The notes under the pieces were generated by a model. The model saw nothing but the letters and a program-made list of their open reading frames with translations, searched no databases and was not told the DNA's origin. This document shows, one piece after another, positions 7,924 to 30,524 of a stretch of 64,000 nucleotides of DNA (within the stretch, counting starts at the first letter, position 1; every line of letters starts with the position of its first letter). Origin of the DNA: a virus (lineage: Duplodnaviria > Heunggongvirae > Uroviricota > Caudoviricetes); the IMG/VR virus record IMGVR_UViG_3300032038_000042; one strand, written 5' to 3'. The position numbers were made by a program, and so were the translations under genes.

Positions 7924-7952
7924 TTCTGATATTTAAAAAATAACGTAAAAAA

Positions 7953-8924: not shown

Positions 8925-8972
8925 TAAAAAGAAAAAAGTCAAAAGAAAAACCTCTCAAGAAAAGAGAGGTTT
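8925..8972 (-). terminator. Intrinsic terminator (AAACCTCTC / GAGAGGTTT) with a long U-run on the minus strand
   Basis: 9-bp stem at 8948-8972. On the minus strand it is followed by TTCTTTTGACTTTTTTC. Confidence 0.55.
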
Positions 8973-8988
8973 CTAGCAAATTGTTAAT

Positions 8989-9435
8989 TTAAATCTCTTC
9001 TTTTATGTAGTCATAAAGTCTTCCATAATCTGAAAGGTCATAAGTCTTTTCAGGATTTTCTCCAATTGAAATGCTTCCACCCCAATCCATTTCCCATATA
9101 AAGTAATCTGCTAAATCTTCAAGCTCGTTAACTTTTTCTTCTTCTGATAATTTACTTATAGATATTCCAAGCTCTTCTGCAATTTCTTCCAAAGATTTTC
9201 CTGGAGAATTTTCTTTATAAGTATCTAATCTTGTTTTATAAAAAGCTTTTTCATTTACAGCTGCAAAGAGAGTAACAACATGCTCAAAGACAAGGTCGGT
9301 AAGCCACTTTGGCATTACTCCACTTCCATCTTCTACAAAAGGATTCTGCTCTACCATTAAATCATGCTTCTTGTTTAACTTTTCATATTGCTCTTTAATC
9401 CTTTTCAATCTTGCAATAAAAGTTTCTTTAGTCAT
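8989..9435 (-). CDS. Hypothetical protein (148 aa)
   Basis: ORF with a 4-nt overlap to the upstream gene. Confidence 0.45.
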   Translation of the reverse strand: MTKETFIARLKRIKEQYEKLNKKHDLMVEQNPFVEDGSGVMPKWLTDLVFEHVVTLFAAVNEKAFYKTRLDTYKENSPGKSLEEIAEELGISISKLSEEEKVNELEDLADYFIWEMDWGGSISIGENPEKTYDLSDYGRLYDYIKEEI

Positions 9436-9913
9436 TTTTCTTTATCCTTGTTTCGTTATTAGTTATTAAAAACTCCGCAGTATTTCTCAAAAGATCTTTT
9501 ACATCATCGGAGTAGCCAAAACGCTTTTGATTCATTTCAATAGACTTAAAAATGTCACCATCGTCGTGTCTTTCTGAGGAAGCTTTCCAATCGCAAATCA
9601 ATTCAATCATGTCGATGAGATTCATATCTCTCATTCCATTCTTGAAATGTTCTGGATGATGCCTATTATTTGCATAATGTCTATCGAGTGCAGGTTTCAA
9701 ACCATCTAAGAATGATTTATATTCATCACTACCGTAAGTACAATTTGCTAGCTTTGGAGTATATTCATCGAATAACTCCTTCTCTACAGGATCTTCAATT
9801 TTATCCCAATCGTGCAATTCACCTCTTTCGTACAAAGTATCCGCGCAAGCATAAACATACTGCTTTACTTTTGCAATATGCTTTTTGGTATCTTTTGTTG
9901 AATCGTAACTCAT
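9428..9913 (-). CDS. Hypothetical protein, His-rich (possible metal-dependent hydrolase fold)
   Basis: Contains ...ELHDWDK...DRHYANNRHHPEHF... The HD-like or His-cluster assignment is only suggestive. Confidence 0.4.
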   Translation of the reverse strand: MSYDSTKDTKKHIAKVKQYVYACADTLYERGELHDWDKIEDPVEKELFDEYTPKLANCTYGSDEYKSFLDGLKPALDRHYANNRHHPEHFKNGMRDMNLIDMIELICDWKASSERHDDGDIFKSIEMNQKRFGYSDDVKDLLRNTAEFLITNNETRIKKND

Positions 9914-10740
9914 TATTTTTTCTCCTTTCCAAAATCGTTGTATCTTCCGGAGCTAAAAAACTCTTCATAGAAGTTATCTCGAAGAGTATCCCAAGCAACT
10001 ATAGAATCTATATCCTCATTGCTACAAGCTTTCGATTGCTCTTCCATAAAGTTCAAAACCTTTTGCATAGCGTCTCGGATAACTTTATTTTCTTTAGTCA
10101 AACAAATCTCTACTGCTTGTGTATCTTCAAAATCCTCTAAGCTACCGGACTTAGATTGCTTACCAAAATCAATTCCGTGATCAAAGCAAAGATTATTTTT
10201 AGCCTTTTCTCTTTCTGCATTATACTTTCTTTCGTAATATTCGGAAATTTTGGCTTCTAACTTCAACCACTCGCCAGTTCTTTTATGCAGCAATACACAA
10301 TCTTTTTCAGCAACGTTGTTTGGAACTTTGTAGCAATCGATCCTAAAAGTTTCAGTACCAAAACAACCAAACTTGTAAATGCCAGCTGGTTCAATTCCAT
10401 TTACATGTTTATAGAATGGTGAAAGCTTCATAAAAGCAGCTACCTCAGGACATGCATAAATTGCATCATAATCGTTTGAAATTATCATAGTTAATGTATT
10501 TCCAAAAAGGCGAGCTGCATCAAGTAACTTCTTTGTATCGTCAATCTCTACATTACTTAAATCAGCAACCTTTTGATCAAGTCGGGCTGTTGCAAAAGCT
10601 TTTTTTATTCTTTTGTAGTCTGCTTCAACCTTTACTTGAAACTCATAAAACTTTTTGAAATAGTCTCCTCCTAAAGATTCGAACATGTTAGGATCTGCTT
10701 TTCTGGTTTCTTTTATAAACACATAGTAGGGTTTAATCAT
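9913..10740 (-). CDS. Hypothetical protein
   Basis: The ORF is trimmed to an internal ATG (MIKPYYVF) preceded by GAGGAG, forming an ATGA overlap with the upstream gene. Confidence 0.45.
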   Translation of the reverse strand: MIKPYYVFIKETRKADPNMFESLGGDYFKKFYEFQVKVEADYKRIKKAFATARLDQKVADLSNVEIDDTKKLLDAARLFGNTLTMIISNDYDAIYACPEVAAFMKLSPFYKHVNGIEPAGIYKFGCFGTETFRIDCYKVPNNVAEKDCVLLHKRTGEWLKLEAKISEYYERKYNAEREKAKNNLCFDHGIDFGKQSKSGSLEDFEDTQAVEICLTKENKVIRDAMQKVLNFMEEQSKACSNEDIDSIVAWDTLRDNFYEEFFSSGRYNDFGKEKK

Positions 10741-11615
10741 TTTGTCTCCTCGTTTACTTGTTTTGCAATCTCTTCCCAATCTAAGTCAAGTGACTTTATA
10801 GCATCGACAATGTCGTGTAATAGCGGAGTTGGTATTTTAGAAACTTTGCTGACATTTATGATTCCTAACTTTTCGCATTCGTCAAAAAGCTCTTCTCTTT
10901 CTTTTGAATCATCTTTTATTCGATATTCCCAATCTTTTCCAAACTTTATACTTTCACCAAATTCTTTATCATCAGGACCAATTGCAAACTCTACATCAAA
11001 CCACTCGTTTTCACTTTCCGGAAGTCCCGGAATACAAATTCTTGCTTCAACTCTTTTACCATCTATAAGAGCTTTCATTGCTTCTTTCCAATTAAGCAAT
11101 GTCGGATCTTCAACTTCTGAAAGAAGTACCGGTTGTAAGTTATCGAAGTTTGGAGCTTCTGGAACTAGGGTTTCTGCAATTTTTTCAACTAAGTTTTTTT
11201 CAGCTTGCTCTTTACGAAACTCTCTTATATGTTTATTATGATCTTCTATAAAGTATCTCGCGTCTTGCTTGTTGCGATATGCTCTTATAAACTTCCAATC
11301 CTCTTCGCTAAATTGCTGACCAAGTTCAAAATAGTTGTAAAAACCGTCAGAAATAAATTCACAAACAATAAAATTAAACTCTGCTGAACTTCTCCTGAAA
11401 GGAACCCATAAAACTTCAAGATTCTTTTTTGCAAAGTCTATATAAAAAGTAAGCCATGTATCAAAAGGAAAAAGCGTGTTTATATGACAAGGTTTAATTA
11501 TTTGTTTAAGCCATTTTTCGAATTCGTCTCTCCAGCCTACTTGAGATACTGTATAGAATTCTTTTAAAGGAATTGGTTTAAAGTCTACAGTTTTCTGCAA
11601 AGAACTTTTTTCCAT
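10737..11615 (-). CDS. Hypothetical protein (292 aa)
   Basis: Long ORF in a co-directional early-gene-like block. Confidence 0.5.
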   Translation of the reverse strand: MEKSSLQKTVDFKPIPLKEFYTVSQVGWRDEFEKWLKQIIKPCHINTLFPFDTWLTFYIDFAKKNLEVLWVPFRRSSAEFNFIVCEFISDGFYNYFELGQQFSEEDWKFIRAYRNKQDARYFIEDHNKHIREFRKEQAEKNLVEKIAETLVPEAPNFDNLQPVLLSEVEDPTLLNWKEAMKALIDGKRVEARICIPGLPESENEWFDVEFAIGPDDKEFGESIKFGKDWEYRIKDDSKEREELFDECEKLGIINVSKVSKIPTPLLHDIVDAIKSLDLDWEEIAKQVNEETK

Positions 11616-11716
11616 ATAGTATAACTCCTCCTTTTGTATTTTGTTCCTATAGAGGACTTTTTTTAGCTAAAAATATTCTTGCACTTATACATTTTAATAT
11701 AGGTAAGACTTACAAA

Positions 11717-11749
11717 GAAAAAGCTGCTCTTTTTTTGAGCAGCTTTTTG
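11717..11749. terminator. Intrinsic terminator (AAAAGCTGCTC / GAGCAGCTTTT), bidirectional
   Basis: Perfect 10-11-bp stem with a TTTTTTT loop and flanking T/A runs. Same stem as at 10-43 and 50052-50086. Confidence 0.6.
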
Positions 11750-11762
11750 AAAGTTGCTTTAA

Positions 11763-12218
11763 TTACTTTGCTGTTGCAGAGCTTGTATCGGTAGCTATAA
11801 GCGAAACATCTGTTCCGTTAATTACAAGTTCGTAAAGTTTATCAGGAACACCAGATCTCCTATAAATAATGTATCTGTAGTAGAATTTAGTACGTATGTT
11901 ATTTTTTAGGTTTTCAAAATCTACAAAACGGTTAAAATCTAGGTTATTTGAAGCTTTATTTATTGTATTTTCGTATGTAGTTTCATACCAAGATTCAACC
12001 TCTTCAACAGTAGCACAATCTGGAACCGATATAAATTTTACAGTATCTCCATTATCGCGCTGTGCTGTAATTTCATTGTTTGAATTACCAGTACCGGAAT
12101 TTTCTGGAGTTTTAAAATCAAAACCACCTGAAGCCGAATTAGTACAAGCAACAAGGCTGCTACCAAACAAGGCTGCTACCAAAACTAACAGAACCAAATT
12201 AAACTTCTTCATTTTCAT
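11763..12218 (-). CDS. Lipoprotein
   Basis: N-terminus MKMKKFNLVLLVLVAALFGSSLVAC is a signal peptide with a lipobox L-V-A-C. Confidence 0.6.
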   Translation of the reverse strand: MKMKKFNLVLLVLVAALFGSSLVACTNSASGGFDFKTPENSGTGNSNNEITAQRDNGDTVKFISVPDCATVEEVESWYETTYENTINKASNNLDFNRFVDFENLKNNIRTKFYYRYIIYRRSGVPDKLYELVINGTDVSLIATDTSSATAK

Positions 12219-12361
12219 ACCTCTTTAAAAGAAAATTTTTGCTATTTTTCTACCTTTCTAGCAGAAAACCAATTCGTTACTACCTATTTGTAACGTTTTT
12301 ACAGTAATATTATAGGCAGAGTTTCCTGAGAATTTCCAAAAAATTTTAAAAAAATGATTTT

Positions 12362-12733
12362 TTACACGGATTTTCTACATTGGTCTAAAAAACCTTTTCC
12401 ATATGTTTTTTCTGCATATTGTAAAAAAGGTTTTATATCATTTCCTGTAATGACATCTATCCCTAATTTATCTATCAACTCTATTTTAGCGACTTCTTTT
12501 TCGTTTAATCCTTCCGCGAGGTGCGTACCTTTAATTTCGATTAACTTATCGTGTACTTTAAAATCTGGATGAAAAATGTGGAACTTTTCATCATCTTCTT
12601 CCAGTTTATACGGTATTTCAATATCAGGATGATACTCAAACGGAATACCATAATCACGTAAATAGATGTAGTAAGCTAGCTCCCAAGAAGAGTCGAAAAC
12701 AATATTATCTAATATATACTGAACCTTTCGCAT
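12362..12733 (-). CDS. Small PD-(D/E)xK-like nuclease-fold protein
   Basis: ...DSSWE...HPDFKV...LIEIKGT shows D/E ... PD ... E-I-K spacing typical of restriction-endonuclease-like folds. Confidence 0.4.
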   Translation of the reverse strand: MRKVQYILDNIVFDSSWELAYYIYLRDYGIPFEYHPDIEIPYKLEEDDEKFHIFHPDFKVHDKLIEIKGTHLAEGLNEKEVAKIELIDKLGIDVITGNDIKPFLQYAEKTYGKGFLDQCRKSV

Positions 12734-12739
12734 GCAAAA

Positions 12740-12943
12740 TTAAGCTTCTTCTGTTAAGCTTTTTGCAACTGCGAGTAACTGCTCTATTTCTGTTTTTTGC
12801 TCTTCCGTAAGCAGTAGTTGGTTATTGTTAGTTGCTATTTGATTTTTCAAATCGGTATTTTCGTTTTTCAATACCTTAAGTTTTGCAATTAAATCTTTTA
12901 TAAGCTGTAAAAGAGCTTGATTTGCTTCAAAAATATTATTCAT
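12740..12943 (-). CDS. Small coiled-coil protein (67 aa)
   Basis: Heptad-like Leu/Gln/Glu pattern. Confidence 0.35.
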   Translation of the reverse strand: MNNIFEANQALLQLIKDLIAKLKVLKNENTDLKNQIATNNNQLLLTEEQKTEIEQLLAVAKSLTEEA

Positions 12944-12958: not shown

Positions 12959-14752
12959 TTAGCTCACAGCAGCTGAATTAAACACAACTTTAGACGCTTT
13001 TAATATTCGAATAAAAACCGGAGACGTATATACGACTTTTCCAAAAGTAAAATAACCTTCGTTTACAGCACAGGGTGCATCTTCTTTAACTGGTATAACA
13101 AAAGGTTTAGCGAGATTTTGACAATCTAACCAATCTGTATTTCCTTCTGATTTTATATACATTTCTCCGTCATGCTCTATATCAATATTAATGTGACTGT
13201 AGCAATCCTCTGCATCAACTTTAAAACACAATGCAGATTCGCTCGGGTCATCTATTGTATAAACTCCATGATAAAGTTTTGGTTCCCAACTTTCAAGTGC
13301 TTTTTTAGAATCCCAAGCTTCTCCATAATCTCTAAGTGGTGCATGTACACTTGCAGATGGAGTTGTAACTCTATTAGACTCATCACTGTAATCGGAATCT
13401 ATATCAAGTTTAACCTCGTAAGTAAATACATTTTCTTTTTTAATGTTAAAAGCTTTTAGCAATAAAAATCTTGAAGAGGCTTTTATTTCGATATCTTTAT
13501 CGATCTGGAACTCTCCGGAAGTCGGTTGATGTGTATCTACTTCAATATCGTAAGTAAATTGAACATTTCTATTTGCATCTAAAACGGTTAATGTAAAAGG
13601 ATGCTGCGGTCTGAAATACTGTAAGAAATTATTTTTTACAATAAAAGTAAAAGGTAAAGAGTAAATAGTATCAAATTCGTGAGGAAAATAAGCAAAACCG
13701 GATGTCCATTTTGTTTTATACTCCTGTAAAGTTTCTTTTACATAAGTATTTTCTGCTTGAGCTTGGGCTTTAGAGATGTACTCATCAACTCCAATTCTAA
13801 TCGGTTTGGATAATTTTGAGTTACCATTATCATCTGCAATTCTTACTCTTAACTCTACAAAAGGATTTAAAGGGTCGATTGTTGTAAACAAATCCAATAA
13901 ATTAAAAGTTAATGCATACTTATTTCTCCAGTAAAAAGGATTTACATCATCGACTGTATAGACATTTTCTGTTTCAAGAAGTTTCCAATAACTTCCTTTT
14001 CCTTCAAGTATATCTGCTATAGAAGCTACATGACTTGTTTTACTATCATGTACTAAAGCTATACTTGTTGCTTCTGTAAAATTGTTTGCAATACAGAATG
14101 GCTCTACAATCAATTGACAATTCTCGCAACCTGCGTAAGATTTGTAAAACTTTAAACGTAAAACATCGTACTCTTCGTTGTTTTGGTAGCAAATAGCTTT
14201 AAGAGGTTTTTCTCCATCTTGAGTAATACTTAAATTTCGTAACGGAAAGTTTGCAGCTGTAAAATCCTCGATCATGTCATCTGCATACTCTTTGGTTACA
14301 ACATCCGTCGGTTTTACTGGAATGTAACCAGGCTCCATAGTCGAGCTACCATCTTTTAAAAATACTTTTTCCTCGGTTTGGGCTGTATAAATGACTACAG
14401 AGATAGATGTAATTGGATCTATTGGTTCTACCTGACAAACAATAGATGCATAGTCTTGTTTTAAAGTCGGCAAAAATTGAAGTTCGTTTACTTGCTTACC
14501 ATTACAGTAATATTTAATACCTGTATATTTATTTTTAGGTGTTATTGCTAATTTAAGTTTTTCATTAAAAAATTGAGTTCTATACTCCGAATCTTGCGTT
14601 AAGTAAACAGTCTGACGCTTAGCAATAATTTTTCCGTTTTCATCTGCAAAGTAACCGTTTACATCCGGTACAGTATCGTAAACTTTAGCTTCGTATAATT
14701 TTATTGGTACTCCAACTCCGGAGTTTCTATCAAGTCTACCTGTCAATTCCAT
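12959..14752 (-). CDS. Hypothetical large protein (597 aa), possibly virion/tail-associated
   Basis: Long ORF divergent from the giant tail-fibre gene. No catalytic motif recognised. Confidence 0.5.
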   Translation of the reverse strand: MELTGRLDRNSGVGVPIKLYEAKVYDTVPDVNGYFADENGKIIAKRQTVYLTQDSEYRTQFFNEKLKLAITPKNKYTGIKYYCNGKQVNELQFLPTLKQDYASIVCQVEPIDPITSISVVIYTAQTEEKVFLKDGSSTMEPGYIPVKPTDVVTKEYADDMIEDFTAANFPLRNLSITQDGEKPLKAICYQNNEEYDVLRLKFYKSYAGCENCQLIVEPFCIANNFTEATSIALVHDSKTSHVASIADILEGKGSYWKLLETENVYTVDDVNPFYWRNKYALTFNLLDLFTTIDPLNPFVELRVRIADDNGNSKLSKPIRIGVDEYISKAQAQAENTYVKETLQEYKTKWTSGFAYFPHEFDTIYSLPFTFIVKNNFLQYFRPQHPFTLTVLDANRNVQFTYDIEVDTHQPTSGEFQIDKDIEIKASSRFLLLKAFNIKKENVFTYEVKLDIDSDYSDESNRVTTPSASVHAPLRDYGEAWDSKKALESWEPKLYHGVYTIDDPSESALCFKVDAEDCYSHINIDIEHDGEMYIKSEGNTDWLDCQNLAKPFVIPVKEDAPCAVNEGYFTFGKVVYTSPVFIRILKASKVVFNSAAVS

Positions 14753-15017
14753 TTGTAATTTCCTCTACTTCGATGTTGGAGAATTTTCCAGTTGCATAAA
14801 ACTCAATAAAATTAAAAAGATCTTTTGCAGCTTTTACATCTCGTTTATCCAAGCTATCTGGTCCATCTTTTAAGGCTTGTTTAATAAATTTATGTTCACC
14901 TGGAAAATCGTCTACTTTTGCTAAAACTTTATCCGGATTAGTTGCTAAATCGTTTATAAAAATATTCAACCAATTTGATGTAACTTGTGTAAACTGTTCG
15001 CTGTTTTCTACATTCAT
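14736..15017 (-). CDS. Hypothetical protein (93 aa)
   Basis: ORF overlapping the downstream gene by 17 nt. Confidence 0.4.
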   Translation of the reverse strand: MNVENSEQFTQVTSNWLNIFINDLATNPDKVLAKVDDFPGEHKFIKQALKDGPDSLDKRDVKAAKDLFNFIEFYATGKFSNIEVEEITNGIDR

Positions 15018-15046
15018 AATAGCAATTAGTTAATAGCTTAACTAAT

Positions 15047-18000
15047 TTGAATATTATGTTAACAGCTGAAACTAAAACAAGCACACTTTGGAAAGCCCAC
15101 AAAGGTTGGGGTTCTACACATACAGAAAGAGAAACATTTGAAGAGTTATATAGATCTTTTAAAGAAATTTCTAGTAACTCGATTTTAGCTTACGGAGATT
15201 TACTTCCAAGAAAACCTACAGACCAGTTTTTTGAGGATGTAAAAGCGCTCGATGCTACAAACGATACTGTTTACTATAAAGAGTCTTCTTTTAGAACTAT
15301 TCCTTTAATCAAAAAACATGTTAATGTAAGACTTACACCTGTTTCGCAGAATTGTGATCATGCATTCGTTATTGCAGATGTAAAAGGTAATCAGATTAAA
15401 AATATCATTCCGTACGATTTTAGTGATAGTGGAATTTACAACTACAAGCTTACGGACTTTTATGGTAATGAAATTCCATGGGGTATTTGCGACTGGGTTA
15501 TAGATACCAACTCTAGTTTGTTAACATTTAACAATGGAATACCAGACACTGTTAGTGCAGCTTATCCTCCAAAATTAACTTTTTATCAGTACATCGGACC
15601 TGTTGGAGAAAGACATTATATAGATGCTGTATTGTTTGATATTACAGAAGCTGTTTACGAACCATATAAACCGGTTTTGGATATTACAGATCTTGTATCA
15701 ACTCAACTTGATCAAATTGAAAAGGACTTTTTTAACAAAACAAAATTCTCCGGAGATGATACAAACCCTGGTATTGGTTTACAATATAACGTCTTATCTA
15801 ATGTAATTAAAACTGCGACTCAAGATCCAATAAAAGGTTACGACGATAATAGTAAAGCTCAAGTTGTAAGTTTAATTTCTCATTTAAAAGGTTCTACAAC
15901 AGATGCAGAAGTTCTATTTGTAAGTGAAGGAATTGATACTTCAAAAACATATAATATTCAAATAGAAGAAGGTGCAGCCGAAAAAGATAATATTGCTAAA
16001 ATAGAAACTGAAGATGGTTTTTTCATCATCCGAGGTTTGCCAGGAAATTATCAAGTAACAGTAGAGGAAGATCAAAGAGCATATGCAGCTCTTTTAGTTA
16101 AGGATAACGATACTCAAGAATACGAGGTTTTTTATCCAAGAGAAGAGTTAAATGTTACTTTAAAACTTCCAGTATTTGTAGATTTAATTAATTTCCCTCC
16201 ACATTTAAAGTTAACTACATTAACATCTTACTCGGATCACATTACACCACAATTTTACGGTCCACGTGTTGCGGACTTTGTAATTGCAGCAGGTAACTCT
16301 ACAGTTAATTGGCGTTCTGCAGATTATGTAGTTTACAATTATGAGGGTTTTTTCTTAAGAGATGCAATCGCAGCAAGAGAAGGTAATCACATTTTCTTAA
16401 GAAACGGTATTTACGAAAATGATAATAAAGAATTGCTCATTCCAAACAACATTTATCTGCACGGTGAATCTCGAGAAGAAGCAATCATTAAAAATGCAAA
16501 AATTAGATTAGGTAAAGATGCAAGCTTAGATACTCTCAGTTTTCAAGACTGCGAAGTAATAGTTGATAGTTATGCAGCAATAAAGAATTGTAATTTTACA
16601 AATACTCCAGTTTATGTAAGAAATGGACAAAAAACAGCTGTAATGCATGGTTGTTCTTTTGAAGATTTGGAAATAGATGGAAACGATCACATTGCAGATT
16701 CTCAGGTTTTACGATTAAAGATAACAGGTTCTGCAAACTTGTTCGGTACAGCTGTTGTTGAAACTTTAGATGTAAATAACGGAACTTTTGAAGCATTCGG
16801 GTCTTACATAAAGAGTTTTAAGCACACAGATGGAACATTTTACATAAACTCATGTAACATCGGAACATTAAATGTAATAAATAGTAGCAAAAATTCTGTA
16901 TTAAATACAACTGCAATCGGTTATGTTGAAAATCTTCCAGACTTTATCAAAATCGATACGAGTTATGTAACAAAGTTTTCTGACAAAATTACAAGAAGAG
17001 TTTATCCAGATGAAGCTACAATTCCGTATTACTCAAGTTTCGAAAGAAGAGTTTACGCAAAGTTACCAGATCCATTCTTATATGATGAAGAAACAAATAA
17101 ATTAAATATAAAAATCGATACAATTGAGCATACGATTTTTATTAACAAAAACGGTGAACTTCAATGTAGATTCTTCTCTGCAGATGAGATTTGGATTAAA
17201 GATCCCGATATTTTTAAAACTCAAATTGAAGATGTTTACAGTGAACATGCAGATACAAAATTAGATCATCCAAAGCCAATTCATGTAGAAGAGGCTTTAG
17301 TTGATATATACTGGTCTAAAGCAGATTTAAAAAATGGTAAAGTTCCAATCAGTCAACTTCCAGATTCTGTTGCTTACGGTGGTTTAAGTTTAGTTGGAAT
17401 GTGGTCTTTTGAAGACAGCGAAGGTAAATATCCAACTTTTGCAGATGTAGATACTCAATTTGGATCTGATGACGAATATACAGGGTTACAAAACGGTTGG
17501 TTCTTTATTGTAAGTGCATCTCATGCAGAAGATGATCCAGTTAAACCTCAATATTCAGAAGATGGTGTTGAATGGACTGCGGGTGACTGGATTATTTATA
17601 CAGGTGGAAAAAAGCATCTTATAGACTACTTAAAACCAATTCGTTTCTTGTATAAAGGTCAAAATGCAAGCTTACTAGAGAGTTCAAACGAAACTGTTAC
17701 GTATGAAATTCCATTAGAAAAGATAAAGCATGAAGTTTCTGGGGATGGAAGTTTTGAAGGCTCTTACGAAGGTAGCTATGAAGGTTCTTACGAGGGTAGT
17801 TACGAGGGAAGCTCAGAATCGAGTGGTGGAGGTGTTACTGTAATTGATTATGGTACAGTAACAATTGATAAAGAAGGAAAAATTGTAAAGACTTATAACT
17901 TACCTCGTACTTTTACAATTGGTAAGCTATTAAAAGATGTTCCTGGACTTTATATTCGAGAGTATCAATACTCAATGGTATCAGATGGAGATAGCTGGTC

Positions 18001-19771
18001 AAAATTAGATAGAGCTTATCTCGACCCTGTATACTCAAGATTACCAAACTTAGCAACTGCTGCAGGTGCAGACAATCCACAATGGTCTATTGAAGATGGA
18101 GGAACAGGTCTTTTAAGACTTTCTTATAAGTCCCTTGCAGAAGCAATTCGCTTAATTAACGAAACTCTTTTAAAGCTTTCTCCGGATAGACCTACATCTA
18201 TTCAAAACATCGATGTAATTTTTGATGAAGAAAAAACTACAGCTAAGCTTATAGATGTATATCCTATCAGTACAGGTTTGCAATTAAATCAAGTTATTAA
18301 AGAAAACGAACCTTTACATTATTATGATTCTGATTCCGGAAAAATATGCTTTAAGCAAAAAGGTGATCATGATTATTTACCTCTTGAGAATTGTTTTTAC
18401 TGCGGTACTTCATCAACAATAAAAGTTTTAGACTACGAAGGAGACAAAACAGAGGATGTTACCGATAAATATGCAACAATCGAAAGGTTTGATCCTTATC
18501 AAAAATACAGATTAGGTTTTAGAGCACCAACTGTAATGGATGCTGCAGAGGTATCTGGTACAATAAATCTCGGAGAAGGTGATTTTAGAGTTGCTCATAA
18601 GGTAAGGTTTGTACAAGAGGATTTAGTATGCACACCACAAGTAACAGACTTAAAAGAGACTTTAGAAGGTGAAACACGTTCATTTATAAGCTTTGTAGAA
18701 AGTAAAATTTATAAATTCGAATCGATAAAAGTTCAACCGTGTACAGCTCAAACAGTTAACTTGCGTGTCTTGAATACTTTCTTAAACTCTTGTAGGACAG
18801 GTGGATACGGATACGTACCAAACGGACAAAAAATTACCGGTACATTCTTAATTAAAAACTTTACAAAATACGGAGTTGTAGGTAAGGATGCTAATATCGA
18901 ATTAGCAGCTACATTTGCAGGTATTGATTTACCAATTACAATTGAATCTCAAACATTACTTGAAACAGATACAACGTACGAAACTTTTGATTTGGAAGTT
19001 GCATTTACTACTACTTTGCCAGCAGAAAAGGATTATTACGATAGTCAATTGTTGGTAACTGTAAGCGCAAGAAACTTCGATCAAGAAATTAAAAATGAGC
19101 AAGTTTTACTTATAAAAGATTTAATTACAATCAATCCCGATTCAATTCAAAAAATTGTTGAGCCAAGTGGTGCACTACTTTATCCGACTCTTGGAAGAGG
19201 TTCAAATACTTTCGGAGATGAGTATTTAGGTAAAACAGTTCTAAATGTAATCAATAGTCCAGAGCTTGTTTGGGAAGAAAACGGTTATGGTTGGCCAAAA
19301 AGGAGTAAGTTTGTAGATAGATTTAACTTACCAGAAAACGATTATGCAATTCCGGAGCAGAATGGTATAATTGTAGGTGACAATACCTATAGGTTTGTTT
19401 GCTATAAGTTTAGTTTTGACAAAATTCAGGATTTGTGCGGCTTTAATGTAAATTTTGAATGGGCTGAAAACGAACCTAAGTTAAAATCTATAGATGGTAC
19501 TTACGAAAACATAATGCTTCAAGTTTGTGTAGATTCTTTAGAAGCAAAACATAAATATTTGTTAAACGGAAATAAAGCAGTTCCAGTTTTCTTTGAAGCT
19601 ACTTTTGAACAAGATGAAACTTGCAACCACCCAGGAAAAAGTAATTTAACAAAACGAAGAATTACATTTGGTAGAAAACCTATTCCTATACAAGATATTT
19701 ATATAAGAGTTGGTGTTGCAAAAGATTCAGGTGTTAGAATTAAAAAATGCTATGTGACAACAGAGGAGTAA
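15047..19771 (+). CDS. Giant tail-fibre / tailspike-like protein with a parallel beta-helix (pectate-lyase-like depolymerase) region and a (GSYE)n repeat
   Basis: 1574-aa ORF with a TTG start at 15047 (the first ATG is at 15056). Residues about 430-620 show repeated NxxIxG / N-rich beta-helix rungs (…NAKIRLGKDASLDTLSFQDCEVIVD…NCNFTNTPVYVRNG…). GSYEGSYEGSYEGSYEGS lies at nt about 17758-17810. Confidence 0.6.
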   Translation: MNIMLTAETKTSTLWKAHKGWGSTHTERETFEELYRSFKEISSNSILAYGDLLPRKPTDQFFEDVKALDATNDTVYYKESSFRTIPLIKKHVNVRLTPVSQNCDHAFVIADVKGNQIKNIIPYDFSDSGIYNYKLTDFYGNEIPWGICDWVIDTNSSLLTFNNGIPDTVSAAYPPKLTFYQYIGPVGERHYIDAVLFDITEAVYEPYKPVLDITDLVSTQLDQIEKDFFNKTKFSGDDTNPGIGLQYNVLSNVIKTATQDPIKGYDDNSKAQVVSLISHLKGSTTDAEVLFVSEGIDTSKTYNIQIEEGAAEKDNIAKIETEDGFFIIRGLPGNYQVTVEEDQRAYAALLVKDNDTQEYEVFYPREELNVTLKLPVFVDLINFPPHLKLTTLTSYSDHITPQFYGPRVADFVIAAGNSTVNWRSADYVVYNYEGFFLRDAIAAREGNHIFLRNGIYENDNKELLIPNNIYLHGESREEAIIKNAKIRLGKDASLDTLSFQDCEVIVDSYAAIKNCNFTNTPVYVRNGQKTAVMHGCSFEDLEIDGNDHIADSQVLRLKITGSANLFGTAVVETLDVNNGTFEAFGSYIKSFKHTDGTFYINSCNIGTLNVINSSKNSVLNTTAIGYVENLPDFIKIDTSYVTKFSDKITRRVYPDEATIPYYSSFERRVYAKLPDPFLYDEETNKLNIKIDTIEHTIFINKNGELQCRFFSADEIWIKDPDIFKTQIEDVYSEHADTKLDHPKPIHVEEALVDIYWSKADLKNGKVPISQLPDSVAYGGLSLVGMWSFEDSEGKYPTFADVDTQFGSDDEYTGLQNGWFFIVSASHAEDDPVKPQYSEDGVEWTAGDWIIYTGGKKHLIDYLKPIRFLYKGQNASLLESSNETVTYEIPLEKIKHEVSGDGSFEGSYEGSYEGSYEGSYEGSSESSGGGVTVIDYGTVTIDKEGKIVKTYNLPRTFTIGKLLKDVPGLYIREYQYSMVSDGDSWSKLDRAYLDPVYSRLPNLATAAGADNPQWSIEDGGTGLLRLSYKSLAEAIRLINETLLKLSPDRPTSIQNIDVIFDEEKTTAKLIDVYPISTGLQLNQVIKENEPLHYYDSDSGKICFKQKGDHDYLPLENCFYCGTSSTIKVLDYEGDKTEDVTDKYATIERFDPYQKYRLGFRAPTVMDAAEVSGTINLGEGDFRVAHKVRFVQEDLVCTPQVTDLKETLEGETRSFISFVESKIYKFESIKVQPCTAQTVNLRVLNTFLNSCRTGGYGYVPNGQKITGTFLIKNFTKYGVVGKDANIELAATFAGIDLPITIESQTLLETDTTYETFDLEVAFTTTLPAEKDYYDSQLLVTVSARNFDQEIKNEQVLLIKDLITINPDSIQKIVEPSGALLYPTLGRGSNTFGDEYLGKTVLNVINSPELVWEENGYGWPKRSKFVDRFNLPENDYAIPEQNGIIVGDNTYRFVCYKFSFDKIQDLCGFNVNFEWAENEPKLKSIDGTYENIMLQVCVDSLEAKHKYLLNGNKAVPVFFEATFEQDETCNHPGKSNLTKRRITFGRKPIPIQDIYIRVGVAKDSGVRIKKCYVTTEE

Positions 19772-20964: not shown

Positions 20965-21711
20965 TCACTCGTTATCGTTACCAGTTTCAAATGAACTGTC
21001 TCCGAAAATCCAATCAAGAGCATCTTCATAATCCTGGGAAGCCAAAGTTCTACAATCTGGATTTTCCCTTGGATCTGACTGATGATCGATGTAACCACCA
21101 AAATCAATCCAATTGGAAATATCTGGATGTGCTTTCCATTCATTCAATGGAGCTTCTTTCAAGTGCTCCAAAGATTTAATGAAGCAACTCTCTCCGTAGT
21201 CACCCTCTGTCTCCCAAAAGGTGTCTCGATCATCTCCAATGAATTTGTGTTCTTCGTTCATGTAGTGGAAGTAACTGAATTTGCAACCCTTTTCTTTAAG
21301 GAAATCAAAAAGACCTTTTACTTTATCGTAAGCAAGATTGCGGATGTAATTGACATTTTCTTCATCAATTTCCTTGTAGTGCTTAATCCAATATTCATCG
21401 TTCTTTTCTTTTGCTCTTGCAATGTCCGTTAGCGAGCCAAAACAAAATGAATACTCTCCCCAGGACTTTTCAAGGTTGTGACGTTCTCCATACTCATTTT
21501 TCTGCATAAGGGAAAGCCAATCGCATAAAGCAACCAGGTAGTAAGAAAACTTTGACTGTGAATCAGAGTAACTTTCGAACTCCCATCCGAACTCATCACC
21601 TTTCCAATTTAAAGTACCATTTTTACCTGCACCGCTTCCTTTTGAAGCGAATGTAAGTGAATGTGCTGAACTTGAATTTGTTTCAAACGTATTTATACGA
21701 ATCGATTTCAT
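20965..21711 (-). CDS. Member 1 of the MKSIR-xx-TFETNSSS-xHS N-terminal family (acidic, 248 aa)
   Basis: N-terminus MKSIRINTFETNSSSAHSLTF. It shares its first ~18 residues with the ORFs at 32513, 40449 and 46999, which otherwise have unrelated bodies. Confidence 0.55.
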   Translation of the reverse strand: MKSIRINTFETNSSSAHSLTFASKGSGAGKNGTLNWKGDEFGWEFESYSDSQSKFSYYLVALCDWLSLMQKNEYGERHNLEKSWGEYSFCFGSLTDIARAKEKNDEYWIKHYKEIDEENVNYIRNLAYDKVKGLFDFLKEKGCKFSYFHYMNEEHKFIGDDRDTFWETEGDYGESCFIKSLEHLKEAPLNEWKAHPDISNWIDFGGYIDHQSDPRENPDCRTLASQDYEDALDWIFGDSSFETGNDNE

Positions 21712-23429
21712 GCTTCCTCCAAAAACTGGCTAAATTGTTTAATCTGACTTGCTGTATAAACCTTTTCAATTGGCATATCAATCTTTCTACACCAGTCGGA
21801 AACGATTGAAGGATCGATATACGAATTTTTTGCTGTTCCTGACGTAAAATTCTGGTTACGTTCTTTTGACTCAAGGTTAAGCTCAGCTTGATCGATTTTA
21901 GCTTTTGATTTTTCAATCTGCTCTTTCAAAGCTTTAATCTTATCCTTGTAACCATCCTTTTTAGCAGCTTTCAAAGCCTTGATCTTTTCTTCACGCTTTT
22001 TATTCTGCTCTACAACTTTTGCTTTACGCTCGTCGAGTTTTTCTTCAGAAGCTTTGAAGCTTGCTTTACGCTTTTCTTCAGCAACCTTATTTACACCACG
22101 CTGATGATTCAAACGACGTGCAACCTGCATTGTAGCTTCATCAAATGCAATCTTTTTAAGTGCAATTGGCGAATCTTTTGTTACTTTGAACTTTGCAGTC
22201 ATCTCTTCAAGTGCTTTAGTAGCTGTATAAGCTGCAACTGCAGTACGTGCAAGTTTTGGAGTAAAGATTCCGTCAAGCTCTGGAACGACCTGAGAAATGT
22301 ATTGCTTAATCTGAAGCTTATCTGTCTTGAGCTTTTTGTCCTTTGCCCAAGTTTCTTCAATAACATCTGCATATTCAGTTTCAATTACGCTTGTATCTCT
22401 TACAGAATCTTTTCCGTAAAAGTCAAACTTAATTTTATTTCCTGAACGCTTAACTTCTTTTCCCCATTCAAGTGCAAGAAGCCCTTTTGTACCATTTATA
22501 GTTTCGCTTGCAGAACCAATTCGAATACCTTTTTCGAAAAGCATGAAAACTGCAACTGCTGTACTCAAGTCCTTTTTTGCTTTAAAATCGCTTGCTATTT
22601 TTGCAAGTACTTTTTCGTAAGATTTTCCAAGTGTTGCTCCTGCAGCGTACTTTTTTGTCTGGCCTTCCTTCTTTACGGAAGAAGCAGCAGCAAACTGAAT
22701 CATCTTGTATTTTGTTGACTTAAGTGTTTTGATAGAACCATCTGCATTTGGAATTCCAACATTAATGTTGTACTGAGCAGCAAAATGTGATTCTGGATTC
22801 CAATCAACGTTCCAAGCAAAACCACTTGTAATTAGCATTTCACCATCTTCGCCATAATAAAGCACTTCTGGAAGCTTTTTGCTGTTTGTGTTAAGTTTAA
22901 CATCTGCAGCTGTATTTTCGAATTTCCAATATCCGTTAAGGGGTGAATCTCCTCGTCCGAAGAAAATTCCTTCTGGTTCAATTGTCCAGCTTGCAAGCGG
23001 TTCGTCGTTACCGTTAATCTTTACAATACCGTATTTTGCTTTAAGTTCTTCATTCTGCTTTTTGATTTCGGCTGCATTAGCCTTTTTCCAAGCAGCTTTG
23101 CATTCTTTTGCTTCCGCGTACCATTTACGCCATTTTGCAATTTCTTTATCGTTTGCTACAAAATTAACCAAATCTGGATACTTTGTAAAGTCTTTTCCAC
23201 CTGCAGAAGCAATGCAGGTAAAAACACGCTTAATAAACTTTGTATCCTGCATGCAAGGAAGTTCCGGATTAATACGACAAAAAGCTCCAAAAATGCGGTC
23301 TGAAAGTTTATTTTTATCTGCAAAAGGGGGAACTGGGATTCTTGCTGGAATACCAATTCCTTTTATTTCTACTGATGTTAAATCCTGTAACTTCATTTCG
23401 TAACCTCGCCGTATAATATAGTGATACAC
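21708..23429 (-). CDS. Type IB DNA topoisomerase (573 aa) with an N-terminal extension and a coiled-coil linker between the catalytic His and Tyr
   Basis: ...FYGKDSVRD... (Arg), ...TPKLARTAVAAYTATK... (Arg), ...ARRLNHQRG... (His) and ...GTAKNSYIDPSIVSDWCRK... align with poxvirus/bacterial TopIB motifs (...GTSKLNYLDPRITVAWCKK...). About 95 residues of K/E-rich heptad sequence separate the His and Tyr. Confidence 0.7.
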   Translation of the reverse strand: MYHYIIRRGYEMKLQDLTSVEIKGIGIPARIPVPPFADKNKLSDRIFGAFCRINPELPCMQDTKFIKRVFTCIASAGGKDFTKYPDLVNFVANDKEIAKWRKWYAEAKECKAAWKKANAAEIKKQNEELKAKYGIVKINGNDEPLASWTIEPEGIFFGRGDSPLNGYWKFENTAADVKLNTNSKKLPEVLYYGEDGEMLITSGFAWNVDWNPESHFAAQYNINVGIPNADGSIKTLKSTKYKMIQFAAASSVKKEGQTKKYAAGATLGKSYEKVLAKIASDFKAKKDLSTAVAVFMLFEKGIRIGSASETINGTKGLLALEWGKEVKRSGNKIKFDFYGKDSVRDTSVIETEYADVIEETWAKDKKLKTDKLQIKQYISQVVPELDGIFTPKLARTAVAAYTATKALEEMTAKFKVTKDSPIALKKIAFDEATMQVARRLNHQRGVNKVAEEKRKASFKASEEKLDERKAKVVEQNKKREEKIKALKAAKKDGYKDKIKALKEQIEKSKAKIDQAELNLESKERNQNFTSGTAKNSYIDPSIVSDWCRKIDMPIEKVYTASQIKQFSQFLEEA

Positions 23430-27260: not shown

Positions 27261-28550
27261 ATGTGGAAAATTCACGGAGAAATGGTCTCTAACGAAAGAG
27301 ACGTAATGGAACATTTTGGTCTAAAATACCCACCTATTGTAAAATCACTTTTGGATACCGACTTATATAAGTATAGCATGGGCCAAACGTATCATCATCA
27401 ATTTGGAAATCTAAAGACAACTTGGGATTTTAAAGCTCGCAATGTTGGCGAAAACACAACTCACACTTCTATCTATACAGAAGAGGACAAAAAAGAGATA
27501 AACAATCAGCTTTGCGCTTACGCAGCACTTCGTTTTGATGAAGATGAATTGCAATATCTCAATGCAAAATGTCCTTGGATTAAGCAAGATTACATCAACT
27601 TCTTGCGCTTTTGGCATCCACGCCTAGAAGACTTTCAATGCACAACTAACAACAAGTTCGGTAATGGAATTATGTTTTTTGGTGTTCAAGAGTATATTGA
27701 ATACTACGAGATTCCAGTCCTCGAAATTTTTGCCGAAGTCTATTACAGAAACCACTACAATTATGATGAGCTTCTTGCAGGTTTCAAAGAAAAGACTAAC
27801 GAAAAAATCGCTGAAATGAAGAGCAACAAAGACCTTCATTTTGGAACTTGGTCAGAGTTTGGAGCACGTCGTCGCCTTTCATTTGAAGCTCAAGACTGGT
27901 TGATTGGTCGTCTTACAGAAGAAAAGCTTCCAGGTTTTATTGGAACTTCAAACGTTCTTTTGGCAAAAAAGTATAAAGTCACACCTGTTGGAACTTGTGC
28001 TCATGAATTTATTGAATGCGTTGGCCAGGGAAATCCAATGTACAATCCAGCTTACAGCAATAAGATTGCAATGGAAGCTTGGATAAAAGAATATGGTGTT
28101 TGGAACGGAATTTGGTTGACTGACACTATTGGTGATGAACTTTGCCGTAGAGACATGCAAAAAACTTATGCAACACTTTTCAGTGGAGTTCGTAACGATT
28201 CCGGAGATCCATTTAAGTGGGCAGATGATTGGATAAATCATTATACCAATCTTGGAATTGATCCAAAAACCAAAACTTTGCTTTTCAGTAACAGTATAAA
28301 TTCTCTTGAGCTTTGGTCAAAGTTGTGCTTTTATGTCGAAGGTCGTGCTAAACCTGCTTTCGGAATTGGAACGTATTGGTCTGGCCCGCAAACTATTGAT
28401 CCTCTTAACATTGTTGCAAAAGTCGTTCTTGTAAATGGAAAAGATGTTGCAAAACTTTCTGATGATAGCGGAAAGACAATGAGTCGTAGTCAAGAGTATG
28501 TTGATTACCTTCGCAGAACTCTCGATTGGCGTTTAAAATCTGAGGAGTAA
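27261..28550 (+). CDS. pncB: Nicotinate phosphoribosyltransferase
   Basis: ...SLLDTDLYKYSMGQTYHHQFGN... matches the PncB N-terminal signature (E. coli ...[20 protein letters not shown]...). The 429-aa length is typical. Strong SD. Confidence 0.8.
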   Translation: MWKIHGEMVSNERDVMEHFGLKYPPIVKSLLDTDLYKYSMGQTYHHQFGNLKTTWDFKARNVGENTTHTSIYTEEDKKEINNQLCAYAALRFDEDELQYLNAKCPWIKQDYINFLRFWHPRLEDFQCTTNNKFGNGIMFFGVQEYIEYYEIPVLEIFAEVYYRNHYNYDELLAGFKEKTNEKIAEMKSNKDLHFGTWSEFGARRRLSFEAQDWLIGRLTEEKLPGFIGTSNVLLAKKYKVTPVGTCAHEFIECVGQGNPMYNPAYSNKIAMEAWIKEYGVWNGIWLTDTIGDELCRRDMQKTYATLFSGVRNDSGDPFKWADDWINHYTNLGIDPKTKTLLFSNSINSLELWSKLCFYVEGRAKPAFGIGTYWSGPQTIDPLNIVAKVVLVNGKDVAKLSDDSGKTMSRSQEYVDYLRRTLDWRLKSEE

Positions 28551-28553
28551 AAA

Positions 28554-29135
28554 ATGATTACACCAAAACTTTTGAATAAAACAAAAGAAGTAGACCTTAT
28601 CAAAACTCCAGTCTTTACTGTTGTTGAAAAAGAATACGAAAATCTGGAATTCAAACCAGTAGGATTGAATTGCAAAGATTGGGTAATGGTTATTGCTAAA
28701 GACTCAATTTCAGATCCAGTCTGTGTTTTTGTAAAGCAAACAAGATGGGGTTGTGAGCATTCCACAATTGAATTTCCTTGCGGTACAGTAGACTTAAATG
28801 AAAGTCCTGTAGAAGCTGCAGTAAGAGAATTTCGAGAAGAAACAGGTATTGAGGTTGCACAATCTTCGTTAAAAGAGATTGCAACATTCAATCCAAATCC
28901 AGCTTACTTTAACAATCTTATGCACATTTTTGAATTTGTAGACAGAGGTTTGTTGAGCAAGTTCTTAAATAAGAAAAAGCAAAAGCTGGATAAAAACGAG
29001 GATTGCGAAGTCTTTGTTGATAGACTTGAAAATCAAGCAACACTCTTAAAGAAAGGTGGAATGAGTTTAATTGGATATGTATATGCTTCAAAAGTAAATA
29101 CATCTGCAAAGTACGAATTGAAGGAGATTAAATAA
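28554..29135 (+). CDS. Nudix hydrolase
   Basis: Perfect Nudix box GTVDLNESPVEAAVREFREETGI (Gx5Ex7REUxEExGU). Confidence 0.75.
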   Translation: MITPKLLNKTKEVDLIKTPVFTVVEKEYENLEFKPVGLNCKDWVMVIAKDSISDPVCVFVKQTRWGCEHSTIEFPCGTVDLNESPVEAAVREFREETGIEVAQSSLKEIATFNPNPAYFNNLMHIFEFVDRGLLSKFLNKKKQKLDKNEDCEVFVDRLENQATLLKKGGMSLIGYVYASKVNTSAKYELKEIK

Positions 29136-29136
29136 C

Positions 29137-29712
29137 ATGAAAAATAAATTTTTAGTTGTAATTGATATGCAGAATGATTTCTGTACAGGTGCTTTGAAAA
29201 ACGATGATGCAGTAGCTGTAATTCCTTTTATTAAAAAGCAGATTGAGGAAGCTCGTAAGAATGGTACTCGAATTGTTTATACTCGCGATACTCACGGAAG
29301 CGATTATATGGAAACACTCGAAGGAAAGCATCTTCCATTTCCTCACTGCTTGAATGAATCCTTTGGTTGGGAAATCGTAGATGAACTTAAACCAGTTAAT
29401 CCGATAGTATTTGCTCCCTTTGGAGTTATTTGTAAGATGATTGAGAATGATCCAAAAGCCGATATTGTTGTAAACAAAAATCATTTCGGTTTTGATGGAT
29501 GGAAACATCTCATTCCAGAAGATTCAGAAGTAACAATGGTTGGAACTTGTACAGATATCTGCGTGGTTTCAAACGCATTAGCTATTAAGACTATTGAAGG
29601 TGTTGAAGTAACAATTCTTGCAAATGGTTGCGCTGGTTTGACAAAAGAAAAGCACGAACATGCTCTTGATGTAATGGAAAGTTGTCAGTGTAAAGTTGTT
29701 AGAGGAGAGTAA
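29137..29712 (+). CDS. pncA: Nicotinamidase (isochorismatase-family cysteine hydrolase)
   Basis: FLVVIDMQNDFCTGAL aligns with E. coli PncA LLLVDLQNDFCAGGAL. Catalytic Cys context ...VGTCTDICVVSNA. Confidence 0.75.
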   Translation: MKNKFLVVIDMQNDFCTGALKNDDAVAVIPFIKKQIEEARKNGTRIVYTRDTHGSDYMETLEGKHLPFPHCLNESFGWEIVDELKPVNPIVFAPFGVICKMIENDPKADIVVNKNHFGFDGWKHLIPEDSEVTMVGTCTDICVVSNALAIKTIEGVEVTILANGCAGLTKEKHEHALDVMESCQCKVVRGE

Positions 29713-29714
29713 AA

Positions 29715-30524
29715 ATGGGTCCAAAAAAGTTCGATGTAAAAGAAGTTCACGACGAGATTATTGAGTTTATTAAAGACTTCTTTAAGGATAAAAATGGTCC
29801 TGCTACATTAGGAATTTCCGGGGGAAAGGACAGTACCATTTGTGCAGCTTTGTTAGCAGAAGCTTTAGGTCCAAAAAGAGTTGTTGGCGTAATGATGCCA
29901 AACGGTGTCCAGATGGACCTTAACGACTCTGTCAAAGTTTGTGAACTTTTGGGAATTCAGGCAATGAAAGTAAACATTGGTCCAGTTTACGATGCTTTGA
30001 GAGATCAGATTGATACATCTGATATTAAAGAGTCTCCTGATCAGTGGACACCTCTTTTCACAACAAATACTCCTGCACGACTTCGAATGGTAACACTTTA
30101 CGGTATTGCTGCTCAACTTGGCGGCTTTGTTTGCAACACTTGCAACTATTCAGAAGACTTTGTCGGTTACTCTACAAAGTATGGAGATTGTTGCGGAGAC
30201 TTTTCTTTATTGAATCAGCTTACAAAAACTGAAGTTGTTGCTTTAGGTGACTATATGAAACTTCCAAAAGAGTTAGTTCATAAAACACCTTCGGATGGAA
30301 TGTGCGGAAAGAGTGATGAAGATAATATGGGCTTTACATATGACTCTTTGGATACTTTTATCAGAACTGGATTAGCTCCAAAATCATTTGAAGTTTATAA
30401 CAAAATCAAAAAGATGCATCTCAATCCAAATACAAAACTAAAGTTGCTGCCAATGTCTTATCCGGAATTGCATTTGGAAGAAAATTGGAAGTTTGAAGAC
30501 CCAATTGGAGAAGTTTTAGCTTAA
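29715..30524 (+). CDS. nadE: NH3-dependent NAD+ synthetase
   Basis: PP-loop GISGGKDSTICAALL (SGGxDS). The 269-aa length matches NadE. Confidence 0.75.
   Translation: MGPKKFDVKEVHDEIIEFIKDFFKDKNGPATLGISGGKDSTICAALLAEALGPKRVVGVMMPNGVQMDLNDSVKVCELLGIQAMKVNIGPVYDALRDQIDTSDIKESPDQWTPLFTTNTPARLRMVTLYGIAAQLGGFVCNTCNYSEDFVGYSTKYGDCCGDFSLLNQLTKTEVVALGDYMKLPKELVHKTPSDGMCGKSDEDNMGFTYDSLDTFIRTGLAPKSFEVYNKIKKMHLNPNTKLKLLPMSYPELHLEENWKFEDPIGEVLA

Follow-up and report, generated by a model that had tools for sequence, protein, structure and literature searches.

A long-form type IB topoisomerase with a human-length linker in a very large phage-like genome

The topoisomerase locus and the predicted protein

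The stretch of 64,000 nucleotides (nt) analyzed here, referred to throughout as the window, belongs to the IMG/VR virus record IMGVR_UViG_3300032038_000042. Its minus strand carries at 21708..23429 an uninterrupted open reading frame (ORF) that comprises 573 amino acids (aa) when counted from a GTG codon at 23429. Over its entire length, the predicted product is a type IB topoisomerase (TopIB) of the long form, i.e., the eukaryote/archaeal type, with a CAP clamp, a catalytic core (CAT), a linker and a C-terminal tyrosine domain (Table 1). Pfam searches yielded matches to Topoisom_I_N (PF02919, the CAP DNA-binding fragment; E 3e-14, above the curated cut-off), Topoisom_I (PF01028, the catalytic core; E 8e-19, 68.4 bits against a cut-off of 23.7) and Topo_C_assoc (PF14370; E 2e-13, 50.7 bits against a cut-off of 25.1), and none to the bacterial N-terminal domain PF21338. 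When PDB sequences were searched with phmmer, human Top1 aligned collinearly from residue 99 to residue 569, the linker included (E ~2e-30); the archaeal enzyme CsTOP1 (6Z01) ranked second (E 5e-26) and the Leishmania enzyme followed. A preliminary description of this DNA, drawn up without database searches, had recognized a type IB topoisomerase, and the three domains together with the human match bear this out. It had also read the protein as an enzyme of the poxvirus/bacterial type into which a linker had been inserted, with an unexplained N-terminal extension of more than 250 aa in front. Neither of these two readings held: the linker is inherited from the long-form family rather than inserted, and what had been taken for an extension is the CAP clamp, nose-cone helices included, i.e., the region that Topoisom_I_N matches.

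Translation of the gene probably starts at the ATG at 23396, which gives a protein of 562 aa, because a GAGG core lies 7 nt upstream and the N-termini of the homologues begin at that methionine. All of them do so (residue 12 of the 573-aa form is aligned with residue 1 of homologue P0006). Shine-Dalgarno cores precede 47 of the 75 genes in the window (63%), against a background of 8%. The catalytic residues are His431 and Tyr526 in the 562-aa form and His442 and Tyr537 in the 573-aa form. A scan for sigma-70 promoters and terminators around the TopIB gene returned nothing that exceeded shuffled sequences.

The motifs quoted in the preliminary description are all present in the ORF (573-aa numbering: GKDSVR at 339, LARTAV at 393, NHQRG at 441, AKNSYIDP at 533 and WCRK at 546), and its proposal that the catalytic residues would align under profile searches was borne out. 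In the phmmer alignment R292, K329, R384, H431 and Y526 correspond to R488, K532, R590, H632 and Y723 of human Top1. This R-K-R-H-Y pentad is invariant across an alignment of 49 relatives (A2), as is T521 beside Y526; R292, K329, R384 and H431 are invariant in a further alignment (A3) as well, and the catalytic residues are present in 276-277 of 278 long-form TopIB sequences.

The catalytic His442 and Tyr537 (573-aa numbering) lie 95 residues apart; the human value is 91. The Lys/Glu-rich segment of about 95 residues reported earlier between these two residues was found where it had been placed (nt ~21849-22094). It contains an 82-aa stretch between conserved blocks with 27% Lys, 16% Glu and 12% Ala, and it occupies exactly the position of the linker of nuclear Top1. 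An AlphaFold2 run on a 49-sequence alignment gave a model with a mean predicted local distance difference test score (pLDDT) of 91.9 and a predicted TM score (pTM) of 0.81, in which no segment is disordered. The linker, at a pLDDT of 81-91, is confidently predicted as an antiparallel hairpin of two helices joined by a four-residue turn, lying between the core and the C-terminal domain, and not as a disordered tail; here, too, the model agrees with the earlier account. The heptad character ascribed to this segment applies to one helix: the second has a hydrophobic period of 3.5 residues (shuffle p = 0.0085), and the periodicity test detected no single hydrophobic register in the first.

Foldseek placed human Top1-DNA complexes at the top of its matches. 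Entry 1k4t reached a TM score of 0.78 in both directions over ~598 columns, and 434 residues of the model superpose on human Top1 at 2.9 Å. The reconstituted human enzyme that lacks the linker (1a31) gave a TM score relative to the query (TMq) of 0.63; the TopIB enzymes of variola and Deinococcus covered the catalytic half only (~240 residues, TMq 0.29). The short TopIB enzymes (vaccinia/variola, Deinococcus, Pseudomonas) are indeed built differently: they comprise ~310-350 aa, carry a small N-terminal beta-domain (e.g., PF21338) instead of CAP, and possess neither Topo_C_assoc nor a linker, their His and Tyr being ~9 residues apart compared to 95 in the query.

Table 1. Coordinates of the TopIB gene, its parts and other features of the window
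Feature	Position	Strand	Remarks
TopIB gene, long-form	21708..23396	-	562 aa plus TGA stop (21708-21710), from the probable start; ORF call, three Pfam domains
Shine-Dalgarno core GAGG	23404..23407	-	7 nt upstream of ATG 23396; read in the sequence
CAP clamp, aa 1-235	22692..23396	-	Core subdomains I/II; nose-cone helices H84-106 and H108-122
CAT catalytic core, aa 236-435	22092..22691	-	Pfam Topoisom_I; carries R292, K329, R384 and H431
R292 codon	22521-22523	-	
K329 codon	22410-22412	-	
R384 codon	22245-22247	-	
H431 codon	22104-22106	-	
Linker, aa 436-515	21852..22091	-	Predicted helices 437-478 and 483-513; composition in text
C-terminal domain, aa 516-562	21711..21851	-	Tyr526 (nt 21819-21821) within GTAKNSYIDP; Pfam Topo_C_assoc
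Downstream gene, 248 aa, function unknown	20965..21711	-	ATG overlaps the TopIB stop (ATGA)
1574-aa protein, function unknown	15047..19771	+	Convergent neighbor of TopIB; 49-99% identical in L001, L005 and L089
Intein-bearing P-loop ATPase, 376 aa	19776-20906	+	Deviant P-loop IGWGKS; counterpart in L001 at 13616-15767
GGDEF (diguanylate cyclase) domain protein	63-1127	-	
NAD salvage/synthesis cluster, four genes	27261-30524	+	NAPRTase, NUDIX, isochorismatase/nicotinamidase-like, NAD synthase; kept in L001
Co-directional block, 15 genes	47648-60575	-	Matches only to phrog_1762, phrog_5172 and, weakly, an Srd anti-sigma-like family
RtcB tRNA-splicing ligase	61062-62291	+	PHROG E 3e-135; ~400 nt from tRNA-Arg(TCT)
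tRNA-Arg(TCT)	62697-62771	+	The one tRNA of the window

Relatives, phylogeny and selection

A search of 5.8 billion proteins recovered 58 full-length homologues of 547-585 aa, which share 31-95% identity with the query and are all metagenomic. An exhaustive search of representatives yielded 838 clusters at E<1e-3, the majority of which are eukaryotic or archaeal. Among GTDB genomes every match except a contig binned with Treponema came from Nitrosopumilales/Thaumarchaeota or from Bathyarchaeia, at 25-31% identity. A tblastn search of 50,697 GenBank phage records returned nothing at E 1e-5; a spurious match to a tail fibre at E 5 was all that appeared. A close-pattern scan of IMG/VR found nothing; an alignment-based scan of the same database found one member of the family and bins of nucleocytoplasmic large DNA viruses (NCLDV).

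For phylogenetic analysis we aligned 199 sequences with FFT-NS-i and computed neighbor-joining trees from 400-434 well-aligned columns, leaving out the linker. The ~60 metagenomic relatives form, together with P0110, a distinct clade with 93% bootstrap support. This clade lies outside both the clade of archaea of the BAT group (Bathyarchaeia, Aigarchaeota and Thaumarchaeota; 88%) and that of eukaryotes and giant-virus copies (97%); nesting of the phage family inside either was unsupported in these trees. A further group of proteins, G29, received 32%, and a split that sets archaea and eukaryotes against the phage family and G29 received 61%. Since neighbor-joining was applied to saturated distances, the deep branching order suggested by these sequences must be regarded as tentative.

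The G29 proteins possess all three Pfam domains and have a His-Tyr spacing of ~105 residues. Their clade is larger than that of the query, and their contigs, which measure 91-329 kb, appear to stem from large phages of a second lineage. Four of them (L085, L087, L097 and L098) share an arrangement in which a protein of ~2,240-2,990 aa is followed by one of ~755 aa and then by TopIB, at 10001-11734 in each case. A lytic transglycosylase (SLT), Amidase_2 and TnpB insertions are found near the G29 TopIB genes, and some of the contigs have been binned into metagenome-assembled genomes (MAGs) of Bacteroidales, Gallicola or Patescibacteria. The G29 representative P0111 had no match among GenBank phages. 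The giant proteins of ~2,300 aa had raised the idea that these contigs might be crAss-like; it was dropped, as none of eight neighboring proteins produced a PHROG match.

Selection on the TopIB gene was assessed from the ratio of non-synonymous to synonymous substitution rates (dN/dS). Against a relative with 95% identity, this ratio is 0.17 overall and 0, 0.06 and 0.07 for CAP, CAT and the linker, respectively; comparisons with relatives of 45-61% identity give 0.19-0.22. The GC content at third codon positions (GC3) of the gene is 0.272, which is typical of the window (mean 0.267 +/- 0.044) and thus provides no compositional sign of a recent acquisition. Within the family the distance from His to Tyr is kept at 88-98 residues in between (94 in the query; median 92; the archaeal median is 67), and linker composition is conserved, with a median net charge of ~+11. 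Because dN/dS is low, GC3 is typical, and the length, composition and charge of the linker have been kept, the TopIB gene is, as judged from its sequence, a long-resident gene under selection rather than a recent passenger.

Comparison with known enzymes places these proteins further. Human Top1 (1K4T/1A36) has the same catalytic pentad, and its fold superposes on the predicted closed clamp; the identity is only ~22-30%. Human Top1 carries a charged N-terminal domain of ~200 aa with a nuclear localization signal, whereas the phage protein lacks it and starts directly at CAP, so that the human residues upstream of ~215 have no counterpart in the phmmer alignment. The query also stands outside the 97%-supported clade that holds eukaryotic nuclear Top1 sensu stricto and the NCLDV proteins. 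According to the 2016 characterization of archaeal TopIB, the long version is confined to Thaumarchaeota among prokaryotes and has a linker of 53 aa compared to 76 in the human enzyme (PMC4824112). The paper on the CsTOP1 structure notes a shortened linker in most archaea (PMC8748870), and a 2025 analysis found Topo IB to be ubiquitous in BAT archaea and Eukarya, with few exceptions in Asgard archaea (PMC12395588). Archaeal TopIB proteins (Thaumarchaeota/Aigarchaeota/Bathyarchaeia) share 25-31% identity with the query and fall into a separate clade (88% versus 93%), and the linker of CsTOP1, at 53-57 aa, is shorter than that of the phage protein (PMC8748870). In its four-part build the phage enzyme agrees with archaeal and eukaryotic Top1, and it combines a linker of human length with the archaeal-style absence of an N-terminal tail. 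Long Top1 proteins are likewise encoded by giant viruses (Dasosvirus, Marseillevirus LCMAC101/202 and giant-virus MAGs in IMG/VR), and their fold is similar (TM 0.65-0.74); these viruses infect eukaryotes, their proteins are 24-26% identical to the query, and they fall inside the eukaryotic clade (97%), a position consistent with capture from their hosts.

The preliminary description had called TopIB rare in phages, a statement that stands only in qualified form. A divergent "phage-specific version of topoisomerase I" is known from the jumbo phages PaBG, Lu11, phiRSL1 and Motura (PMC7824862), and PF01028 cores have been reported from marine jumbo phages (PMC9123017). PaBG gp84, a jumbo-phage enzyme of the TopIB/tyrosine-recombinase fold, even has the same length as the query (562 aa), but it matches the PF01028 core only, with neither Topoisom_I_N nor Topo_C_assoc. 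There was no tblastn similarity between the query and TopIB of the PaBG type (jumbo subgroup 2.2); hhalign aligned 94 core columns at 21% probability, and the structural match was weak (TMq 0.46, 12% identity). Given the core-only Pfam match and the 94 hhalign columns, PaBG gp84 was rejected as a previously known long-form phage TopIB. Full-text searches of literature outside subscription-only papers brought up no report of a long-form TopIB in phages. The earlier remark that a linker-bearing TopIB in a prokaryotic virus would be unexpected thus retains its point, as the genome is most likely that of such a virus. New here are the occurrence in a putative phage and the phylogenetic separateness; the architecture itself was already known.

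Genomic setting, proposed role and rival explanations

Bases 1-12818 of the window are 100% identical to part of a metagenomic contig of 394,539 bp. The window has a coding density of 93% in the standard code and contains many short, overlapping genes. PHROG matches were obtained for RtcB, dUTPase, dCMP deaminase, thymidine kinase, the NAD salvage genes and the GGDEF protein; together with glycosyltransferases, these recognizable genes correspond to typical auxiliary functions of jumbo phages. Relatives with the same TopIB family occur on contigs of 134-425 kb; the relatives also include a 140-kb viral contig from IMG/VR and a contig of 65 kb that was binned into a Treponema MAG. Near their TopIB genes we found a family A DNA polymerase (PolA), a GyrB-like topoisomerase, QueC and RNase H, further QueD and FolE, as well as a DnaG-type primase and GroEL. 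In relative L002 a T4-like baseplate wedge protein (phrog_219, E 1e-12) is encoded 7 kb from the TopIB gene. The contig size, the Shine-Dalgarno sites, PolA, DnaG, GroEL, the 7-deazaguanine genes and the baseplate protein give the genome, which measures at least 394.5 kb, the look of a huge tailed phage with a prokaryotic host. The host is probably a bacterium, since the replication genes are of bacterial type and GGDEF signaling is present; a GGDEF protein in a phage suggests manipulation of bacterial c-di-GMP signaling.

We consider it likely that the gene encodes a catalytically competent long-form TopIB (a "swivelase") and that the phage-like genome which carries it, at least 394.5 kb in size, has a prokaryotic host, most likely a bacterium. 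The analysis itself establishes the fold and the architecture with the catalytic residues, the purifying selection, the separate clade and the phage-like setting; from these we infer the host, the enzymatic activity and the role of the enzyme. On the model of its homologues human Top1 and CsTOP1, CAP and CAT would close around duplex DNA. Tyr526 would then attack one strand, with R292, K329, R384 and H431 assisting, to give a 3'-phosphotyrosyl link; the downstream duplex would swivel, with the basic linker and the nose-cone helices providing friction ("controlled rotation"), before the strand is religated. By analogy with these enzymes, both positive and negative supercoils would be relaxed through the 3'-phosphotyrosyl intermediate with a need for neither ATP nor Mg2+. 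The role of such an enzyme could be to remove the positive and negative supercoils that arise as a phage chromosome of very large size (~400 kb) is intensely replicated and transcribed. Bacterial topoisomerase IA is unable to relax positive supercoils, and for this reason the enzyme might render the phage less dependent on host gyrase and topoisomerase IV; host topoisomerase IA might also be complemented or bypassed. The GyrB-type enzyme encoded by some relatives suggests a self-sufficient topology toolkit.

Several observations weigh against this interpretation. No virion hallmark gene was detected by Pfam and PHROG searches among the ~75 ORFs of the 64-kb window, where the matches are to nucleotide-metabolism and auxiliary genes only, and capsid, portal and terminase genes were identified neither in the window nor in the closest relatives. 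The baseplate match sits in a relative whose TopIB is only 45% identical, so that for the sub-lineage of the query we infer a tailed phage. The Treponema bin is the sole taxonomic hint to a host, and bin assignments are unreliable for phage contigs. All distances between the query and the other groups are saturated, at 1.5-2.0 substitutions per site. Moreover, the residue that precedes the catalytic tyrosine is Ser in the query and Ala in most relatives compared to Asn722 in human Top1, and a few other DNA-contact residues differ from the human enzyme as well. Cleavage specificity and drug response may thus not be those of human Top1; since Ser (Ala in relatives) replaces Asn722, camptothecin sensitivity is expected to be weak, as reported for CsTopIB.

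We think it unlikely that the protein, while possessing the long-form fold, serves a specialized purpose, such as site-specific cutting and rejoining of DNA to resolve concatemers or junctions, processing of genome ends, or a function in early transcription for which, as in poxviruses, it would be packaged into the virion. Human Top1, human Top1mt and CsTopIB are general relaxases (PMC4824112), the combination of clamp and linker is the architecture tied to controlled rotation, and we noticed neither recombination-site repeats nor partner recombination genes nearby.

An archaeal origin of the element appears still less probable. The window would then represent a virus or extrachromosomal element of an archaeon (of the BAT group, or a gut methanogen), with TopIB as an acquired gene of host type, and a long-form enzyme would be no surprise. 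The only cellular prokaryotic homologues in GTDB do come from Nitrosopumilus/Thaumarchaeota and Bathyarchaeia, archaea likewise use Shine-Dalgarno sites, and the host assignment is weak. Yet the identity to the archaeal proteins is only 25-31%, the phage family branches outside the archaeal clade (93% and 88%), and its linker is much longer (median 92 versus 67). PolA and the DnaG-type primase of the relatives are of the bacterial/phage type, and the GGDEF protein of the window belongs to bacterial signaling. In addition, one relative was binned with Treponema, and the sample names point to rumen or gut material, where BAT archaea are scarce.

It is highly improbable that TopIB was captured recently from a eukaryote or a giant virus, e.g., from rumen protists, and is carried as a passenger that matters little to phage function. 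In PDB the best match by both sequence and structure is human Top1, the linker has human length, and long Top1 genes exist in NCLDV MAGs. Those NCLDV copies group with eukaryotes instead, whereas the ~60 full-length relatives (31-95% identity) all reside on phage-like contigs and form a 93% clade of their own. The strong purifying selection, which includes the linker, and the genome-typical GC3 are at odds with a passenger; the eukaryotic N-terminal domain is absent, and identity to eukaryotic proteins is ~22-33%. A short poxvirus/bacterial TopIB with a secondary coiled-coil insertion and an unrelated N-terminal extension, for which one could cite that the catalytic motifs are common to all TopIB and that PF01028 also matches short forms (P0256), is refuted by the Topoisom_I_N and Topo_C_assoc matches at the two ends, the missing PF21338, the ~240 residues to which the variola and Deinococcus structures are confined, and the full-length collinear alignment with human and archaeal enzymes.

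If a long-form TopIB of phages is accepted as the likely reading, its implications extend beyond this genome. The distribution of long TopIB has been used in arguments on the archaeal root and on the origin of eukaryotes. The phage clade, with its ~60 full-length and selectively maintained members, would constitute a third reservoir that TopIB phylogenies would have to include, and the larger G29 clade in other phage-like elements widens this reservoir. A bolder proposal, which we hold to be rather doubtful, is that huge phages of bacteria harbor at least two old, self-sustaining long-form TopIB lineages (the family of the query and the clade with linkers of ~105 residues), both outside archaea and eukaryotes, and thereby an ancient viral reservoir of Top1 and possibly its source. 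Were the placement outside archaea and eukaryotes true, it would be a counterpart to the viral origin that has been proposed for eukaryotic Topo IIA, and the human-length linker would be either ancestral or independently selected for the handling of very large genomes. The data suggest that a swivelase independent of ATP, which is absent from the bacterial hosts, is the means by which very large phages handle their topological load. A compact Top1 of 562 aa with a linker of human length and no N-terminal tail would probably be expressed well in bacteria, and would lend itself to mechanistic studies of controlled rotation and to the design of inhibitors.

Neighboring genes and mobile elements

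The stop codon of TopIB overlaps the start codon of a downstream gene for a 248-aa protein; because of this ATGA arrangement the two genes are probably co-translated. The 248-aa protein had no match in Pfam and PHROG searches, and its gene is kept beside TopIB only in the close relative L001. The 1574-aa protein encoded convergently to TopIB found no match in searches of Pfam, PHROG and PDB sequences; in relative L102 an ORF of similar size (1440 aa) occupies the place where it would stand.

The P-loop ORF between these genes stops after a Hint/N-intein-like segment of ~120 aa, and the same is true in L001. Its PHROG matches are to intein-bearing primase, DnaC and terminase families, and it may carry a split intein on a trans-spliced ATPase, perhaps a terminase. 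The counterpart in L001 has an additional full HNH-endonuclease intein directly after GWGK. A search of the two ORFs that follow downstream, immediately past the TopIB cassette, did not reveal the C-terminal half of the ATPase.

Elsewhere in the window, the adjacency of RtcB and tRNA-Arg may represent a tRNA-repair counter-defense module, and the block at 47648-60575 could be an uncharacterized structural or host-takeover module. The 7-deazaguanine genes of the relatives (L002, 5961-6635; L101, 18615-20425; L098, 15476-16228) encode QueC, QueD/PTPS, GTP cyclohydrolase I and a radical-SAM enzyme. They suggest that these phages have modified DNA, which could bear on which topoisomerases work on it.

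The 3' end of TopIB is itself the site of a rearrangement in L001, the relative with 95% identity. A cassette of ~1.1 kb (L001 11664-12805; compare 21708-21830 of the window) has been inserted there, with a 325-aa ORF on the opposite strand that shows a faint match to DUF7487. The C-terminus of TopIB in L001 is a strongly diverged replacement (dN 0.49 over aa 516-562), and the last 36 codons of the original TopIB survive downstream of the cassette as a remnant with 97% identity. The cassette looks like a mobile element of the homing-endonuclease type that carries its own copy of the gene end.

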